A stretch of DNA of 64,000 nucleotides from Escherichia coli (GTDB lineage Bacteria; Pseudomonadota; Gammaproteobacteria; Enterobacterales; Enterobacteriaceae): the NCBI RefSeq assembly GCF_016903815.1, contig NZ_CP069973.1; one strand, 5' to 3'. This document shows, in pieces, positions 5,347 to 45,954 of the stretch. A program made the translations under genes and the position numbers. The notes under the pieces are model-generated. The model saw nothing but the letters and a program-made list of their open reading frames with translations, did no database searches and was not told where the DNA came from. The stretch's first letter is position 1. Each line of letters begins with the position of its first letter.

Positions 5347-5387
5347 CGCCAGACGCCTCCTTTCTCCATAAGGGGGCGTTTTTTGTG

Positions 5388-6095
5388 CACAGAAAACCCC
5401 CAGCTAGGCTGGGGGTTCCGGAAAGCTTTCAGCTTTGAGCCAGTTATTAAAACCCCTTTTGATTTGTTAAAACACCTTGCGGTCTGGCAACTGCAAGTGT
5501 CAAACAAGAAATCAAAAGGGGGTCCCAATGGGGAACGAAAAGAGCTTAGCGCACACCCGATGGAACTGTAAATATCACATAGTTTTTGCGCCAAAATACC
5601 GAAGACAGGTGTTCTACAGAGAGAAGCGTAGAGCAATAGGCAGTATTTTGAGAAAGCTGTGTGAGTGGAAAAGCGTACGGATTCTGGAAGCTGAATGCTG
5701 TGCAGATCATATCCATATGCTTGTGGAGATCCCGCCCAAAATGAGCGTATCCGGGTTTATGGGATATCTGAAAGGGAAAAGCAGTCTGATGCTTTACGAG
5801 CAGTTTGGTGATTTGAAATTCAAATACAGGAACAGGGAGTTCTGGTGCAGAGGGTACTACGTCGATACAGTGGGTAAGAACACGGCGAAGATACAGGATT
5901 ACATAAAGCACCAGCTTGAAGAGGATAAAATGGGAGAGCAGTTATCGATTCCCTATCCGGGCAGCCCGTTTACGGGCCGTAAGTAACGAAGTTGGATGCA
6001 AATGTCAGATCGTGTGCGCCTGTTAGGGCGCGGCTGGTAAGAGAGCCTTATAGGCGCATTTGAAAAACCTCCGGCTATGCCGGAGGATATTTATT
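5388..6095 (+). mobile_element. IS200 insertion sequence (IS200/IS605 family, tnpA-only); boundaries approximate
   Basis: Contains a Y1/HuH transposase gene; a perfect palindrome AAAACCCCCAGCTAGGCTGGGGGTT at 5392..5416 matches the characteristic IS200 left-end hairpin; kup-rbsD spacer is about 875 bp, far longer than expected for K-12; ends set by the expected ~0.7 kb size, not by exact repeat mapping. Confidence 0.7.
5528..5986 (+). CDS. tnpA: IS200 transposase TnpA (Y1 HuH transposase)
   Basis: 152-aa product from the internal ATG (MGNEKSLAHTRWNCKYHIVFAPKYRR...HIHMLVEIPPKMSVS...); HxH motif (HIHML) present; near-identical to the Salmonella IS200 TnpA as I recall it. Confidence 0.93.
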   Translation: MGNEKSLAHTRWNCKYHIVFAPKYRRQVFYREKRRAIGSILRKLCEWKSVRILEAECCADHIHMLVEIPPKMSVSGFMGYLKGKSSLMLYEQFGDLKFKYRNREFWCRGYYVDTVGKNTAKIQDYIKHQLEEDKMGEQLSIPYPGSPFTGRK

Positions 6096-26350: not shown

Positions 26351-28201
26351 ATGCCTAAGTACCGTTCCGCCACCACCACTCATGGTCGTAATATGGCGGG
26401 TGCTCGTGCGCTGTGGCGCGCCACCGGAATGACCGACGCCGATTTCGGTAAGCCGATTATCGCGGTTGTGAACTCGTTCACCCAATTTGTACCGGGTCAC
26501 GTCCATCTGCGCGATCTCGGTAAACTGGTCGCCGAACAAATTGAAGCGGCTGGCGGCGTTGCCAAAGAGTTCAACACCATTGCGGTGGATGATGGGATTG
26601 CCATGGGCCACGGGGGGATGCTTTATTCACTGCCATCTCGCGAACTGATCGCTGATTCCGTTGAGTATATGGTCAACGCCCACTGCGCCGACGCCATGGT
26701 CTGCATCTCTAACTGCGACAAAATCACCCCGGGGATGCTGATGGCTTCCCTGCGCCTGAATATTCCGGTGATCTTTGTTTCCGGCGGCCCGATGGAGGCC
26801 GGGAAAACCAAACTGTCCGATCAGATCATCAAGCTCGATCTGGTTGATGCGATGATCCAGGGCGCAGACCCGAAAGTATCTGACTCCCAGAGCGATCAGG
26901 TTGAACGTTCCGCGTGTCCGACCTGCGGTTCCTGCTCCGGGATGTTTACCGCTAACTCAATGAACTGCCTGACCGAAGCGCTGGGCCTGTCGCTGCCGGG
27001 CAACGGCTCGCTGCTGGCAACTCACGCCGACCGTAAGCAGCTGTTCCTCAATGCCGGTAAACGCATTGTTGAATTGACCAAACGTTACTACGAGCAAAAT
27101 GACGAAAGTGCACTGCCGCGTAATATCGCCAGTAAGGCGGCGTTTGAAAACGCCATGACGCTCGATATCGCGATGGGCGGCTCTACCAACACCGTACTTC
27201 ACCTGCTGGCGGCGGCGCAGGAAGCGGAAATCGACTTCACCATGAGTGATATCGATAAGCTTTCCCGCAAGGTTCCGCAGCTGTGTAAAGTTGCGCCGAG
27301 CACCCAAAAATACCATATGGAAGATGTTCACCGGGCTGGTGGTGTTATCGGTATTCTCGGCGAGCTGGATCGCGCGGGGTTACTGAACCGTGATGTGAAA
27401 AACGTACTTGGCCTGACGTTGCCGCAAACGCTGGAACAATACGACGTTATGCTGACTCAGGATGACGCGGTAAAAAATATGTTCCGCGCCGGCCCTGCGG
27501 GTATCCGTACCACCCAGGCATTCTCGCAAGATTGCCGTTGGGATACGCTGGACGACGATCGCGCCAATGGCTGTATCCGCTCGCTGGAACACGCCTATAG
27601 CAAAGACGGCGGCCTTGCGGTGCTGTACGGTAATTTCGCAGAAAACGGCTGCATCGTTAAAACCGCGGGCGTCGATGACAGCATCCTCAAATTCACCGGT
27701 CCGGCGAAAGTGTACGAAAGCCAGGACGACGCGGTAGAAGCGATTCTCGGCGGCAAAGTTGTCGCTGGCGATGTGGTGGTGATCCGTTACGAAGGCCCGA
27801 AAGGCGGCCCCGGCATGCAGGAAATGCTCTACCCAACCAGCTTCCTGAAATCAATGGGGCTCGGTAAAGCCTGCGCGCTGATCACCGACGGACGCTTCTC
27901 CGGCGGCACCTCTGGTCTTTCCATCGGCCACGTCTCGCCGGAAGCGGCAAGCGGCGGTAGCATTGGCCTGATTGAAGACGGCGACCTGATCGCTATCGAC
28001 ATTCCGAACCGTGGCATTCAGTTACAGGTAAGCGATGCCGAACTGGCGGCGCGTCGTGAAGCGCAGGAAGCTCGTGGCGACAAAGCCTGGACGCCGAAAA
28101 ACCGTGAACGCCAGGTTTCCTTTGCGCTGCGTGCCTACGCCAGCCTGGCAACCAGCGCCGACAAAGGCGCGGTGCGCGATAAATCGAAACTGGGGGGTTA
28201 A
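26351..28201 (+). CDS. ilvD: dihydroxy-acid dehydratase
   Basis: 616-aa ORF; Fe-S cluster cysteine motif (CPTCGSCSG). Confidence 0.96.
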
Positions 28202-28203
28202 TG

Positions 28204-29748
28204 ATGGCAGACTCACAACCCCTGTCCGGTGCCCCTGAAGGTGCCGAATATTTAAGAGCGGTGCTGCGCGCGCCGGTCTACGAAGCGGCGCAGGTCACGC
28301 CGCTACAGAAAATGGAAAAACTGTCGTCGCGTCTTGATAACGTGATTCTGGTGAAGCGCGAAGATCGCCAGCCAGTACACAGCTTTAAGCTGCGCGGCGC
28401 ATACGCCATGATGGCGGGCCTGACGGAAGAACAAAAAGCGCACGGCGTGATCACCGCTTCTGCGGGTAACCACGCGCAGGGCGTCGCGTTTTCTTCCGCA
28501 CGGTTAGGCGTGAAGGCGCTGATCGTCATGCCAACCGCCACCGCCGATATCAAAGTTGATGCGGTGCGCGGCTTTGGCGGCGAAGTGCTGCTTCATGGCG
28601 CGAACTTTGACGAAGCGAAAGCGAAAGCGATCGAACTGTCACAGCAGCAGGGCTTCACCTGGGTGCCGCCGTTCGACCATCCGATGGTGATCGCCGGGCA
28701 AGGCACGCTGGCGCTGGAACTGCTCCAGCAGGACGCCCATCTCGACCGCGTATTTGTACCGGTCGGCGGCGGCGGTCTGGCGGCGGGCGTCGCGGTACTT
28801 ATCAAACAACTGATGCCACAAATCAAAGTGATCGCCGTGGAAGCGGAAGATTCCGCCTGCCTGAAAGCGGCACTTGATGCAGGTCATCCCATTGATCTGC
28901 CCCGCGTGGGGCTGTTTGCTGAAGGCGTCGCGGTAAAACGCATCGGCGATGAAACCTTCCGTTTGTGCCAGGAGTATCTTGACGACATCATCACCGTCGA
29001 TAGCGATGCCATCTGTGCGGCGATGAAAGACCTGTTCGAAGATGTGCGCGCAGTGGCGGAACCCTCCGGCGCGCTGGCGCTGGCGGGGATGAAAAAATAC
29101 ATCGCCCAGCACAACATTCGCGGTGAACGGCTGGCGCATATTCTTTCCGGTGCCAACGTGAACTTTCACGGTCTGCGCTACGTCTCGGAACGCTGCGAAC
29201 TGGGCGAACAGCGTGAAGCGTTACTGGCGGTGACCATTCCGGAAGAAAAGGGCAGCTTCCTCAAATTCTGCCAGTTACTTGGTGGGCGCTCGGTCACCGA
29301 GTTCAACTACCGCTTTGCTGATGCCAAAAACGCCTGCATTTTTGTCGGCGTGCGCCTGAGCCGCGGTCTCGAAGAGCGCAAAGAAATTTTGCAGATGCTC
29401 AACGACGGTGGCTACAGCGTGGTTGATCTCTCCGACGACGAAATGGCGAAGCTGCATGTGCGCTATATGGTTGGCGGGCGTCCATCGCATCCGTTGCAGG
29501 AACGCCTCTACAGCTTCGAATTCCCGGAATCACCGGGCGCGCTGCTGCGCTTCCTCAACACGCTGGGTACGCACTGGAACATTTCTTTGTTCCATTATCG
29601 CAGCCATGGCACCGACTACGGGCGCGTACTGGCGGCGTTCGAGCTTGGCGATCATGAGCCGGATTTTGAAACCCGGCTGAATGAACTGGGCTACGATTGC
29701 CACGACGAAACCAATAACCCGGCGTTCAGGTTCTTTTTGGCGGGTTAG
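28204..29748 (+). CDS. ilvA: threonine deaminase (biosynthetic)
   Basis: ORF 28201..29748; start at the second ATG giving MADSQPLSGAPEGAEYL (514 aa); PLP-binding region SFKLRGA. Confidence 0.95.
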   Translation: MADSQPLSGAPEGAEYLRAVLRAPVYEAAQVTPLQKMEKLSSRLDNVILVKREDRQPVHSFKLRGAYAMMAGLTEEQKAHGVITASAGNHAQGVAFSSARLGVKALIVMPTATADIKVDAVRGFGGEVLLHGANFDEAKAKAIELSQQQGFTWVPPFDHPMVIAGQGTLALELLQQDAHLDRVFVPVGGGGLAAGVAVLIKQLMPQIKVIAVEAEDSACLKAALDAGHPIDLPRVGLFAEGVAVKRIGDETFRLCQEYLDDIITVDSDAICAAMKDLFEDVRAVAEPSGALALAGMKKYIAQHNIRGERLAHILSGANVNFHGLRYVSERCELGEQREALLAVTIPEEKGSFLKFCQLLGGRSVTEFNYRFADAKNACIFVGVRLSRGLEERKEILQMLNDGGYSVVDLSDDEMAKLHVRYMVGGRPSHPLQERLYSFEFPESPGALLRFLNTLGTHWNISLFHYRSHGTDYGRVLAAFELGDHEPDFETRLNELGYDCHDETNNPAFRFFLAG

Positions 29749-30635
29749 TGGTTCGGCAAAATCTTCCAGAATGCCTCAATCAGCGGCTCATGCAGCCGCT
29801 TTTTTTGCGCACACACGCCCAGCTCAAACGGCGTTTTTTCATCACTGCGCTCTAAAATCATCACGCGGTTACGCACCGGTTCCGGGCTGTTATCCAGCAC
29901 CACTTCCGGCAACAGCGCCACGCCACAGCCGAGCGCCACCATCGATACCATCGCTTCATGCCCGCCAACCGTGGCGTAAATCATTGGGTTGCTGATTTTG
30001 TTACGCCGAAACCACAGTTCAATGCGGCGGCGTACCGGTCCCTGATCGGCCATGATAAACGGCACTGTAGACCAGTCGGGCTTTTCGACAGATACCTGAT
30101 TACGCACCGGGCAGGGCAGCGCGGGAGCAATCAGCACCACCGCCAGATTCTCCAGCATCGAAAATGCCACCGCGCAGGGCAAGGTTTCCGGTTTTCCGGC
30201 AATCGCCAAATCTGCTTCGCCAGTGACCACCTTTTCCATTGCATCCGCCGCATCACCGGTAGTGAGTTTGATCTCCACTGACGGGTGTTCCGCGCGGAAG
30301 CGATCCAGAATCGGCGGCAGATGGCTGTAGGCAGCGGTCACCGAGCAGAAGATATGTAATTCGCCAGAGAGCGACGGCCCTTGCTGATCGATGGTGTGAC
30401 GCAATTGCTGATATTGCAACAGCGTTTGCTGGGCGAAAACGCGCAGTTCTTCGCCCGCTTCCGTCAGCGTTACCGTGCGGTTATCACGCACAAACAGCGG
30501 CTGACCGAGATCTTCTTCCAGGCGCTGTATTTGTCGCGAAAGCGTAGACGGGCTAACGTGCATTGCTCGCGCGCTACGGCCAAAATGGCGGCTTTCCGCC
30601 AGATGCAGGAAGGTTTTCAGATCGCGTAAATCCAA
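29745..30635 (-). CDS. ilvY: LysR-family regulator IlvY
   Basis: ORF 29745..30719; the recognised N-terminus (M)[39 protein letters not shown] is encoded from a TTG at 30633..30635, giving 297 codons; start-codon identity is uncertain. Confidence 0.85.
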
Positions 30636-30658
30636 TGGCGCAGCCCTCAATGTTGGCG

Positions 30659-30673
30659 TTGCAGAAATTGCAA
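30659..30673. promoter_or_regulatory. putative IlvY operator palindrome in the ilvY-ilvC divergent promoter region
   Basis: TTGCAGAAATTGCAA dyad in the 149-bp ilvY-ilvC intergenic region; LysR-type operators are dyads of this kind; exact site assignment is an inference. Confidence 0.5.
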
Positions 30674-30784
30674 TGTGATGTTGTGAATATATCAATTTCC
30701 GCAATGAATTTCCTGTCATATAGTGAATTCATTCTCGCAAACGCGAACCGAACAATAAGAAGCACAACATCACGAGGAATCACC

Positions 30785-32260
30785 ATGGCTAACTACTTCA
30801 ATACACTGAATCTGCGCCAGCAGCTGGCACAGCTGGGCAAATGTCGCTTTATGGGGCGCGATGAATTCGCCGATGGCGCGAGCTACCTTCAGGGTAAAAA
30901 AGTAGTCATCGTCGGTTGTGGTGCACAGGGTCTGAACCAGGGCCTGAACATGCGTGATTCTGGTCTGGATATTTCTTACGCTCTGCGTAAAGAAGCGATT
31001 GCCGAGAAGCGCGCATCCTGGCGTAAAGCGACCGAAAATGGTTTTAAAGTTGGTACTTACGAAGAACTGATCCCGCAGGCGGATCTGGTGGTTAACCTGA
31101 CGCCGGACAAGCAGCACTCTGATGTAGTGCGCACCGTACAGCCACTGATGAAAGACGGCGCGGCGCTGGGTTACTCGCACGGTTTTAACATCGTCGAAGT
31201 AGGCGAGCAGATCCGTAAAGACATCACCGTAGTAATGGTTGCGCCGAAATGCCCTGGCACCGAAGTGCGTGAAGAATACAAACGTGGATTCGGCGTACCG
31301 ACGCTGATTGCCGTTCACCCGGAAAACGATCCGAAAGGCGAAGGCATGGCGATCGCTAAAGCATGGGCGGCTGCAACCGGCGGTCACCGTGCGGGCGTGC
31401 TGGAATCCTCTTTTGTTGCGGAAGTGAAATCTGACCTGATGGGCGAGCAAACCATCCTGTGCGGTATGTTGCAGGCTGGTTCTCTGCTGTGCTTCGACAA
31501 ACTGGTGGAAGAAGGCACCGATCCGGCATACGCAGAAAAACTGATTCAGTTCGGTTGGGAAACCATCACCGAAGCGCTGAAACAGGGCGGCATCACCCTG
31601 ATGATGGACCGTCTTTCTAACCCGGCGAAACTGCGTGCTTACGCGCTGTCTGAACAGCTGAAAGAGATCATGGCACCGCTGTTCCAGAAACATATGGACG
31701 ACATCATCTCTGGCGAATTCTCCTCCGGCATGATGGCTGACTGGGCCAACGACGATAAGAAACTGCTGACCTGGCGTGAAGAGACCGGCAAAACCGCCTT
31801 CGAAACCGCGCCGCAGTATGAAGGCAAAATCGGCGAGCAGGAGTACTTCGATAAAGGCGTACTGATGATCGCGATGGTAAAAGCAGGCGTTGAGTTGGCG
31901 TTTGAAACCATGGTTGATTCCGGCATCATCGAAGAGTCTGCTTACTATGAATCACTGCACGAACTGCCGCTGATTGCCAACACTATCGCTCGTAAGCGTC
32001 TGTACGAAATGAACGTGGTTATCTCTGATACCGCCGAGTACGGTAACTATCTGTTCTCTTACGCTTGTGTGCCGCTGCTGAAACCGTTTATGGCAGAGCT
32101 GCAACCGGGCGACCTGGGTAAAGCTATTCCGGAAGGTGCGGTAGATAACGCGCAGTTGCGTGATGTGAACGAAGCGATTCGCAGCCATGCGATTGAGCAG
32201 GTAGGTAAGAAACTGCGCGGCTATATGACAGATATGAAACGCATTGCTGTTGCGGGTTAA
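30785..32260 (+). CDS. ilvC: ketol-acid reductoisomerase
   Basis: ORF 30563..32260; start set at the ATG giving [19 protein letters not shown] (491 aa); NADPH-binding GCGAQG motif. Confidence 0.96.
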
Positions 32261-32276
32261 GTGCGATTCAGAGTTC

Positions 32277-32301
32277 AAGGCCTTCTCCTGAAGAAGGCCT
32301 T
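32277..32301. terminator. stem-loop between convergent ilvC and ppiC (putative bidirectional terminator)
   Basis: AAGGCCTTCTCCTGAAGAAGGCCTT palindrome; no strong T-tract on either side. Confidence 0.5.
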
Positions 32302-32305
32302 GCTG

Positions 32306-32611
<306 letters not shown>

Positions 32612-32738
32612 TCAGTCAGGGAGGGGGGACATATATGGCAAAAGCCCGGAAAATCCGGGCTTCGCAGGTCCCTCAAGGGGAGAAAACTTAGGGCCTCTAT
32701 GGGCTACAGAGTCATTATCGGGGATGGTGATTTTATTG

Positions 32739-33188
32739 TCAATTTATGAGCGATATGGCATTGATTGACTTGATGACTGCCCTCTGTATGTCTGCAACCA
32801 ACTCATGTGGCAAACATTGATTAAGATACCCCCGATAAGTCCTTGCTCTGTTTAATCGGTTTCGACTGACTTGTTGTACCAGGTCGGCTTTAGCCCAACG
32901 TATCTGCTGATCAAAGAAATGCATGTCATTGATAACATTACTGGCTATTTCAACATGCATTCCACGATTTAACTTGTCATGGTCGCGAGTGGTTGATAAT
33001 GGAACGACGATACATGCGTTGCCATTAATTTTTCCGTTGAGCACGACAACCAACCTATTTTTTATCATCTCAGGTGGAATGCGGCCATCGTAATACGTCG
33101 TGCTGAACTGTCCATTCTGGCTAACAGGATAGTTACCAAAGTTGCATTCCAGTATTTCACCAACCTTGGGGCTGAAATTAATCGCCAC
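32739..33188 (-). CDS. yifN: PemK/MazF-like toxin-family protein YifN (standalone, no adjacent antitoxin)
   Basis: ORF 32739..33230; start placed at the GTG at 33186..33188 because a strong Shine-Dalgarno (TAAGGAGAGG) lies 7 nt upstream, giving 149 aa; intrinsic terminator hairpin GCCCGGAAAATCCGGGC at 32644..32660 just downstream on the coding strand; family assignment from remembered annotation and weak motif resemblance. Confidence 0.7.
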   Translation of the reverse strand: MAINFSPKVGEILECNFGNYPVSQNGQFSTTYYDGRIPPEMIKNRLVVVLNGKINGNACIVVPLSTTRDHDKLNRGMHVEIASNVINDMHFFDQQIRWAKADLVQQVSRNRLNRARTYRGYLNQCLPHELVADIQRAVIKSINAISLIN

Positions 33189-33405
33189 GAGTAAACCTCT
33201 CCTTAGTAAACTCTGAAAAAGTAATAACACAACGTTACGACCCGATATTTTCTAAGTCTAATGGATTCATGATGAACTCCGGTTTCGGCCTTCCCTCTCT
33301 GATTTAAACATCCGCAGCCATCCGGTTAGCGGTTTTCACTCGGTCACATTCAAATGCGATTCTGCTACAATCCTCCCCCCCGTTCGAAGATTGAGCAATA
33401 CACCT

Positions 33406-35427
33406 ATGCGTCTAAACCCCGGCCAACAACAAGCTGTCGAATTCGTTACCGGCCCCTGCCTGGTGCTGGCAGGCGCGGGTTCCGGTAAAACTCGTGTCAT
33501 CACCAATAAAATCGCCCATCTGATCCGCGGTTGCGGTTATCAGGCGCGACATATCGCGGCGGTGACCTTTACCAATAAGGCGGCGCGCGAGATGAAAGAG
33601 CGTGTCGGGCAGACGTTGGGTCGCAAAGAGGCGCGTGGGCTGATGATCTCCACCTTCCACACACTGGGGCTGGATATCATCAAACGCGAGTATGCGGCGC
33701 TTGGGATGAAAGCAAACTTCTCGTTGTTTGACGATACCGATCAGCTTGCTTTGCTTAAAGAGCTGACCGAGGGGCTGATTGAAGATGACAAAGTTCTCCT
33801 GCAACAGCTGATTTCGACCATCTCTAACTGGAAGAACGATCTCAAAACACCGTCCCAGGCGGCAGCCAGTGCGATTGGCGAGCGGGACCGTATTTTTGCC
33901 CATTGTTATGGGCTGTATGATGCACACCTGAAAGCCTGTAACGTTCTCGACTTCGATGATCTGATTTTATTGCCGACGTTGCTGCTGCAACGCAATGAAG
34001 AAGTCCGCGAGCGCTGGCAGAACAAAATTCGCTACCTGCTGGTGGATGAGTATCAGGACACCAACACCAGCCAGTATGAACTGGTGAAACTGCTGGTGGG
34101 CAGCCGCGCGCGCTTTACCGTAGTTGGCGATGACGACCAGTCGATCTACTCCTGGCGCGGTGCACGTCCGCAAAACCTGGTGCTGCTGAGTCAGGATTTC
34201 CCGGCACTGAAGGTGATTAAGCTTGAGCAGAACTACCGCTCTTCCGGACGTATTCTGAAAGCGGCGAACATCCTCATTGCCAATAACCCGCACGTCTTTG
34301 AAAAGCGTCTGTTCTCCGAACTGGGCTATGGCGCGGAGCTAAAAGTTTTAAGCGCGAATAACGAAGAACATGAAGCCGAGAGAGTCACCGGCGAGCTGAT
34401 CGCGCATCACTTCGTCAATAAAACGCAGTACAAAGATTACGCCATTCTTTATCGCGGTAACCATCAGTCGCGGGTGTTTGAAAAATTCCTGATGCAAAAC
34501 CGCATCCCGTACAAAATTTCTGGTGGTACGTCGTTTTTCTCTCGTCCTGAAATCAAGGATTTGCTGGCTTATCTGCGCGTGCTGACTAACCCGGACGATG
34601 ACAGCGCATTTCTGCGTATTGTTAACACGCCGAAGCGAGAGATTGGCCCGGCTACGCTGAAAAAGCTGGGTGAGTGGGCGATGACGCGCAATAAAAGCAT
34701 GTTTACCGCCAGCTTTGATATGGGCCTGAGTCAGACGCTTAGCGGACGTGGTTATGAAGCATTGACCCGCTTCACTCATTGGTTGGCAGAAATCCAGCGT
34801 CTGGCGGAGCGGGAGCCGATTGCCGCGGTACGCGATCTGATCCACGGCATGGATTATGAATCCTGGCTGTACGAAACATCGCCCAGCCCGAAAGCCGCCG
34901 AAATGCGCATGAAGAACGTCAACCAACTGTTTAGCTGGATGACGGAGATGCTGGAAGGTAGCGAACTGGATGAGCCGATGACGCTCACCCAGGTGGTGAC
35001 GCGCTTTACTCTGCGCGACATGATGGAGCGCGGCGAGAGTGATGAAGAGTTAGATCAGGTACAACTGATGACTCTGCACGCGTCGAAAGGGCTGGAGTTT
35101 CCTTATGTCTACATGGTCGGTATGGAAGAAGGGTTTTTGCCGCACCAGAGCAGTATCGATGAAGATAATATCGATGAGGAGCGGCGGCTGGCCTATGTCG
35201 GCATTACCCGCGCCCAGAAGGAATTGACCTTTACGCTGTGTAAAGAACGCCGTCAGTACGGCGAACTGGTGCGCCCGGAGCCGAGCCGCTTTTTGCTGGA
35301 GCTGCCGCAGGATGATCTGATTTGGGAACAGGAGCGCAAAGTGGTCAGCGCCGAAGAACGGATGCAGAAAGGGCAAAGCCATCTGGCGAATCTGAAAGCG
35401 ATGATGGCGGCAAAACGAGGGAAATAA
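33406..35427 (+). CDS. rep: ATP-dependent DNA helicase Rep (SF1)
   Basis: ORF 33391..35427; start at the ATG giving [31 protein letters not shown] (673 aa); UvrD/Rep motifs. Confidence 0.96.
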
Positions 35428-45239: not shown

Positions 45240-45279
45240 TACTGATTACCGTGAATGACTGTTTTGAGGGAGTCACACA

Positions 45280-45954
45280 ATGCCCGTCCGCGCCAGTATT
45301 GAGCCACTAACCTGGGAAAACGCCTTCTTTGGTGTTAACAGCGCCATTGTGCGCATTACGTCTGAAGCACCGCTCCTGACGCCAGACGCGTTAGCGCCGT
45401 GGTCACGGGTGCAGGCCAAAATTGCGGCATCAAATACGGGTGAACTGGATACCCTGCAACAGCTGGGATTCTCCCTGGTAGAAGGTGAAGTTGATTTGGC
45501 GCTACCCGTGAACAATGTCGGTGATAGCGGCGCAGAAGTGGCACAAGAGACAGATATTCCCGCATTACGTCAGTTAGCCAGCGCCGCATTTGCGCAAAGC
45601 CGTTTTCGTGCGCCGTGGTATGCGCCTGACGCCAGCGGTCGCTTTTATGCACAGTGGATTGAAAATGCCGTGCGCGGCACCTTTGATCATCAATGTCTGA
45701 TTTTACGTGCGGCGTCCGGCGCTATTCGCGGCTATGTCTCTTTACGGGAACTCAATGCGACAGATGCGCGAATTGGCCTGCTGGCTGGACGCGGTGCAGG
45801 TGCTGAGCTGATGCAAACGGCGCTAAACTGGGCGTATGCTCGCGGTAAAACAACTTTGCGGGTGGCGACCCAGATGGGCAACACCGCCGCGCTTAAACGA
45901 TACATACAAAGTGGTGCGAATGTAGAAAGCACCGCGTACTGGTTATACAGGTGA
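45280..45954 (+). CDS. wecD: dTDP-fucosamine acetyltransferase (GNAT family)
   Basis: 224-aa [29 protein letters not shown]...; begins only 40 bp after the wecC stop, with no rffG or rffH between them. Confidence 0.92.

Follow-up and report, generated by a model that had tools for sequence, protein, structure and literature searches.

ilvY very probably starts at TTG, its most frequent natural allele in Escherichia coli

The 64,000-nucleotide stretch of E. coli DNA analysed here (the window) carries ilvY, encoding the LysR-type regulator of ilvC, between the convergent ilvA and the divergently transcribed ilvC (Table 1). The gene is marked as ilvY by its divergent arrangement with ilvC and by the two operators, O1 and O2, that lie in tandem in the 149-bp intergenic region. 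Its product matches the Pfam profiles HTH_1 at residues 3-62 (E = 3e-23, profile positions 1-60) and LysR_substrate at residues 89-293 (E = 6e-36), and an HTH_1 domain that begins at residue 3 is the customary LysR layout. Read directly from the window, the first codon of ilvY is TTG, at 30635..30633 of the minus strand, in the context ...gagggctgcgcca TTG gat tta cgc gat ctg aaa...; over a longer stretch, the strand 5' of this TTG reads ...caacattGAGGGctgcgcca. The TTG is in frame with GAT TTA CGC GAT CTG (DLRDLK...), with no codon between, so that an earlier note on this DNA was right in seeing an in-frame TTG, and not ATG, before the recognised N-terminus.

Table 1. Features of the ilvA-ilvY-ilvC region in the window
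Feature	Position	Strand	Remark
ilvA	28204..29748	+	
ilvY CDS, 296 aa + stop	29745..30635	-	ORF; LysR-type regulator of ilvC
ilvY initiation codon TTG (very probable)	30633..30635	-	frequent allele in E. coli; GTG in K-12
Probable ilvY 5' untranslated leader, ~47 nt	30636..30682	-	O1 position mapped onto the window, from a secondary account of K-12
Shine-Dalgarno-like GAGGG	30644..30648	-	8 nt 5' of TTG
IlvY operator O1 (ACATTGCAATTTCTGCAACGC)	30656..30676	-	2 differences from the K-12 O1 21-mer
IlvY operator O2 (TCATTGCGGAAATTGATATAT)	30687..30707	-	1 difference from K-12; overlaps ilvY -10/-35 and ilvC -35
Upstream in-frame ATG, very probably not a start codon	30717..30719	-	within ATGACA, a -35-like hexamer
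ilvC, divergently transcribed target gene	30785..32260	+	separated from the start codon of ilvY by 149 bp

At the other end of the gene, ilvA and ilvY converge, and their stop codons share 4 bp (TTAG, 29745-29748). In K-12 the two stops (positions 2377-2427 of the K-12 locus L001) are kept apart by a 58-bp insertion that includes a REP-like palindrome (GCCTGATAGCGCTTCGCTTATCAGGCCTAC) and extends IlvY by a C-terminal Lys, giving a protein of 297 aa as against 296 aa in the window; both forms of the CDS, 891 nt and 894 nt, occur among the strains sampled. Just 3' of ilvA and within the 3' end of ilvY, the sequence at 29782-29800 (+) resembles a terminator, with a hairpin and then a T-run (AGCGGCTCATGCAGCCGCT TTTTTTG). 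This hairpin would fit an overlapping, convergent termination of ilvA and ilvY, as was reportedly described by Sameshima et al. in 1989.

The intergenic region can be read against what is known of K-12. In the account given by PMC5002191, which cites Wek & Hatfield 1988, operator O1 (ACgTTGCAAaaaTTGCAAtGT) is centred at +17 from the K-12 ilvY transcription start, and O2 overlaps the ilvY -10/-35 and ilvC -35 boxes. According to the K-12 literature, the same account included, IlvY represses its own promoter via O1, and its activation of ilvC is described there as inducer-dependent. If these second-hand K-12 data carry over to the window, O1 at 30676..30656, centred at +17, would therefore put the ilvY transcription start at about 30682 (to within a few nucleotides), between the upstream in-frame ATG and the TTG. 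The leader would then begin within the divergent ilvY/ilvC promoter. The supplementary data of the Cappable-seq and SMRT-Cappable-seq papers gave nothing on the ilvY transcription start, and a strict sigma-70 consensus scan of 29600-30850 returned no promoter, a result that is uninformative where a promoter pair is activator-dependent or overlapping. A predicted long-range pairing of positions -13..-1 with +50..+60 was dismissed as chance because it is not conserved in K-12.

The evidence for the TTG as a start codon is largely comparative. A protein-guided search through 100,044 species genomes yielded 80 Enterobacteriaceae ilvY loci, in which the codon before GAT TTA CGC is GTG in 65 species, ATG in 14 (Kosakonia, Phytobacter, Pluralibacter and relatives) and TTG in one, E. 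albertii. In none of the 80 species is this position taken by a synonymous Val, Leu or Met codon that is no initiator. Because the codon is always an initiator, which would not be predicted of an internal codon, it is best understood as the start codon. A core Shine-Dalgarno 4-mer lies in the -20..-4 region of 74 of the 80 species, at a modal spacing of 8 nt, and the remaining six have G-rich runs there; for the GAGGG of the window, the predicted duplex with the anti-Shine-Dalgarno 3' end of the 16S rRNA has an energy of -6.1 kcal/mol. In strain 7/2, which is 100% identical to the window across the 321 bp tested, the RefSeq annotation (PGAP) places the start of the ilvY CDS at exactly the TTG base. 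Thus the TTG at 30635..30633 is very probably the real ilvY start, which bears out its placement by gene callers. The feature is ordinary, is annotated already and would not surprise a specialist. Our search found no published direct mapping of the ilvY initiation site or 5' end in any strain; ilvY (b3773) was absent from the TetRP and TRAINSPOTTER supplementary data, where evidence on initiation sites was sought, and a literature search on the N-terminus of purified IlvY returned nothing relevant.

Within E. coli, the start codon is polymorphic. Allele frequencies were obtained by megablast with 41-mer queries designed so that every 28-base seed includes the start codon, and a word-11 search with three fetched examples revealed two extra haplotypes that the first three queries had missed. 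The TTG haplotype of the window matched 3,364 genomes, the GTG haplotype of K-12 matched 1,854, a TTG AAT variant (D2N, Asp2Asn) matched 127, and gcgcctGTG with codon 4 silently changed to CGT matched 75; the ATG version matched none. In all, TTG is found in ~3,491 (64%) and GTG in ~1,929 (36%) of the 5,425 complete E. coli genomes with the locus, and ~5 were left unassigned, these counts being drawn from RefSeq complete genomes, a biased sample in which a few matches are plasmid copies. Carriers of TTG include O104:H4, O26, O145:H28, ST131 O25:H4 and the mouse commensal 8178, and carriers of GTG include K-12, DH5a, BL21(DE3) and O157:H7. Two haplotypes dominate, gcgccaTTG and gtccctGTG, which differ at 4 of 7 adjacent bases. 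Variation also touches the Shine-Dalgarno element: strain 8178 has AAGGG in place of GAGGG together with the TTG start, and genomes whose match to the TTG 41-mer begins at query position 2 (for example ST131 O25:H4) are judged, from where the match begins, to differ at the same base that is changed in 8178.

TTG is thus the commonest natural form of ilvY within E. coli, and this bears on how the codon had been viewed. The earlier note offered two options, of which a genuine start is upheld by the comparative evidence and a strain-specific substitution is contradicted by the majority status of the allele. The expectation, implied in the note, that the reference has ATG here also fails, as K-12 MG1655 reads GTG. 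Translation from the upstream ATG, which the note named as a finding that would refute its view, is not borne out: that ATG is not conserved as an open extension and lies 5' of the reported K-12 transcription start. The note held further that a reference reading TTG would make the codon unremarkable; the reference does not read TTG, but since K-12 too has a weak non-ATG start, the TTG of the window is unremarkable all the same.

As to the origin of the polymorphism, GTG prevails across the family and is also found in other Escherichia (E. whittamii and two further lineages). The haplotype gcgcctGTG of 75 E. coli genomes differs from the gcgccaTTG of the window solely by an adjacent tG->aT change at positions -1/+1, and E. 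whittamii, with cagcgcctGTG, is nearly identical to it; the K-12 haplotype has changed at -6/-5 (cg->tc) and kept GTG. From this comparison of haplotypes, made in place of a tree, GTG looks ancestral and TTG looks derived by the tG->aT change. Strain XJ34 has the TTG start, yet its CDS is 98.2% identical to that of K-12, and O157:H7 and O145:H28 also differ. The start-codon allele is unlinked to the CDS haplotype, which points to recombination.

We put at about 90% the probability that ilvY is translated from this TTG into a 296-aa IlvY, behind a GAGGG element 8 nt 5' and a leader of ~47 nt, and that TTG is a derived, near-neutral allele of an ancestral GTG. The ribosome would be placed by the Shine-Dalgarno element, the TTG would be read as fMet, and the product would be a LysR-type regulator with the normal N-terminus MDLRDLK.... 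AUG, GUG and UUG are the three strong, efficient start codons of E. coli, at 10-100% of AUG, and GTG or TTG typically lies ~8- to 12-fold below ATG (PMC11445065). A switch from GTG to TTG would barely alter the level of IlvY, given that both are weak initiators and that IlvY represses itself through O1; because of this autorepression, a modest change in translation would be partly compensated at transcription.

Alternatively, TTG may represent an adaptive tuning of IlvY dosage that is kept by selection against GTG in some lineages, with the linked changes at -6, -5 and -1 as part of the tuning. The dominance of two haplotypes that differ at several adjacent bases could be understood in this way, and the lack of ATG in all 5,425 E. 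coli genomes suggests that weak initiation is selected for. A precedent exists in the GTG start of lacI, whose effect on regulator level and on fitness in the gut has been measured (PMC11445065). The predicted energies for opening the ribosome-binding site are also ~2 kcal/mol apart between the haplotypes (11.3 vs 9.2 kcal/mol); when the leader plus 60 nt was folded in natural and swapped haplotypes, the differences were small. Against this notion, the negative autoregulation of ilvY should buffer modest changes in translation, GUG and UUG belong to one efficiency class, and strain XJ34, with TTG before a K-12-like CDS, fits the recombination of neutral variants. Adaptive tuning therefore strikes us as unlikely. 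We hold it improbable as well that the GTG/TTG dimorphism is selectively maintained, with different doses of IlvY by lineage and with avoidance of ATG as selection for weak translation; if this were true, lineages would differ in ilvC inducibility or noise via the dose of IlvY, and the alleles may have been exchanged by recombination, E. albertii included. Our preferred reading is of a near-neutral GTG/TTG polymorphism in a recombining locus. The absence of ATG from E. coli and its restriction to 14 of 80 species would nonetheless be compatible with selection for weak initiation, as has been shown for lacI.

A start at some other in-frame codon is very improbable. Three more in-frame TTG codons lie 3' of the upstream ATG and before the proposed start, at codons -23, -20 and -5, and the last of these (30650..30648) is present in the haplotype of the window and could in principle initiate; it overlaps the Shine-Dalgarno element, however, has no such element upstream of itself, reads TCG in K-12 and O26 strains, and is missing as TTG in most species. 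Downstream, Met24 is the earliest in-frame ATG of the CDS, but a start there would remove about one-third of the HTH_1 domain.

The upstream ATG has a still smaller claim, and we regard initiation there as exceedingly improbable. The longest ORF of the ilvY frame runs over 29745..30719 and would give 324 aa from the ATG at 30719..30717, which is 28 residues more than the TTG-initiated product, just as the earlier note had reckoned for the closest upstream in-frame ATG. This extension does enter the ilvC promoter region, as was also noted: the ATG falls within the divergent promoter region, and 66 bp separate it from the ATG of ilvC (30785). What favours such a start is that ATG is the strongest initiator codon and that the frame is open from it in the window, in K-12 and in 12 of 80 species. 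Yet in 57 of the 80 species an in-frame stop occurs at most 16 codons upstream of the start (at the seventh codon in 47), and the 28-residue extension is therefore not conserved. The ATG is without a preceding Shine-Dalgarno-like motif, would leave the HTH_1 domain to start only at residue 31, and is used as a start neither by PGAP nor by the K-12 annotation. A transcription start near 30682, following the cited account of K-12, would moreover put this ATG at about -37..-35 and so off the mRNA; the ATGACA hexamer that contains it looks like the -35 box of ilvY itself.

The pattern of substitution between the window and K-12 is consistent with this assignment. Across codons 2-296, 58 of 295 codons differ, 56 of them silently and 2 with a change of amino acid, whereas 7 of the 28 codons upstream of the start differ and 6 of these replace the amino acid, as would be expected of non-coding DNA. 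The replacement fractions, 6/7 upstream and 2/58 inside the CDS, are significantly different (Fisher p = 2.3e-6). Judged by silent against replacement changes, the coding boundary falls at the TTG/GTG codon, and ilvY illustrates how such substitutions can mark a boundary of this kind.

Finally, that the TTG is a sequencing error or the sign of a decaying ilvY in this strain, for which the non-ATG codon by itself could be adduced, is refuted by the identical 41-mer in 3,276 complete genomes and by an intact ORF that encodes a protein 99% identical to K-12 IlvY, with changes that are almost all silent.

The surroundings of ilvY have a varied history of their own. Most of the window is 98-99% identical to K-12, and identity falls to 94-96% at ~27000-34000, a segment that comprises the ilvD 3' end, ilvA, ilvY, ilvC and ppiC and is flanked on both sides by DNA of 98-99% identity. 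In nucleotide identity to the window or K-12, the ilvY genes of E. coli strains (92-98%) come close to those of E. albertii and E. whittamii (~90-91%). The segment has the look of a recombining mosaic. On the chromosome of E. coli N96, the 40 nt 5' of the ilvY start are identical to those of Pseudocitrobacter vendiensis, and E. coli CT01 has a 58-kb plasmid with a second, foreign ilvY-ilvC pair (86% identity) that has a GTG start; as far as sequence comparison can tell, both loci suggest interspecies transfer of the ilvY locus. Elsewhere in the window, ~700 bp between kup and rbsD (5383-6090) are missing from K-12 and include a 169-aa ORF (5477..5986, +) whose putative product, judged by eye, looks like an IS200/IS605-type TnpA transposase. 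Conversely, ~1.9 kb of K-12 with two genes of the enterobacterial common antigen cluster, rffG and rffH, have no counterpart in the window at 45240-45281, where rffC follows ~40 bp after wecC.

The wider bearing of these findings is slight. With ~64% of genomes carrying TTG, K-12 and its GTG do not represent E. coli at this codon, and a TTG start is to be expected where ilvY/PilvC biosensors are engineered from non-K-12 strains. In broader terms, ilvY is a regulator gene that was never found to start with ATG in E. coli and rarely does so in the family.

These features can be set against three known systems. The closest is ilvY of K-12 MG1655 (b3773, NP_418221.1, NC_000913.3), which has its annotated start at the homologous base, but as GTG, in the context gggctgtccctGTGgattta (gtccctGTG, compared with gcgccaTTG in the window). 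The two loci share the 149-bp divergent intergenic region to ilvC, their O1 and O2 operators are alike except for 3 substitutions, and their IlvY proteins are identical at 294 of 296 residues, with a 6.7% nucleotide difference between the coding sequences. UUG-initiated genes make up ~3% of E. coli genes. With these, ilvY shares the NTG initiator, its decoding by fMet-tRNA and a Shine-Dalgarno element at standard spacing, and the sole extra of ilvY is the GTG/TTG polymorphism within the species. The third system is lacI with its GTG start (Cherrak et al. 2024, PMC11445065), likewise a regulator of a metabolic operon with a conserved weak non-ATG codon, for which ATG is avoided across the Enterobacteriaceae. 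Unlike lacI, ilvY is autoregulated and is dimorphic, as GTG or TTG, within a single species.
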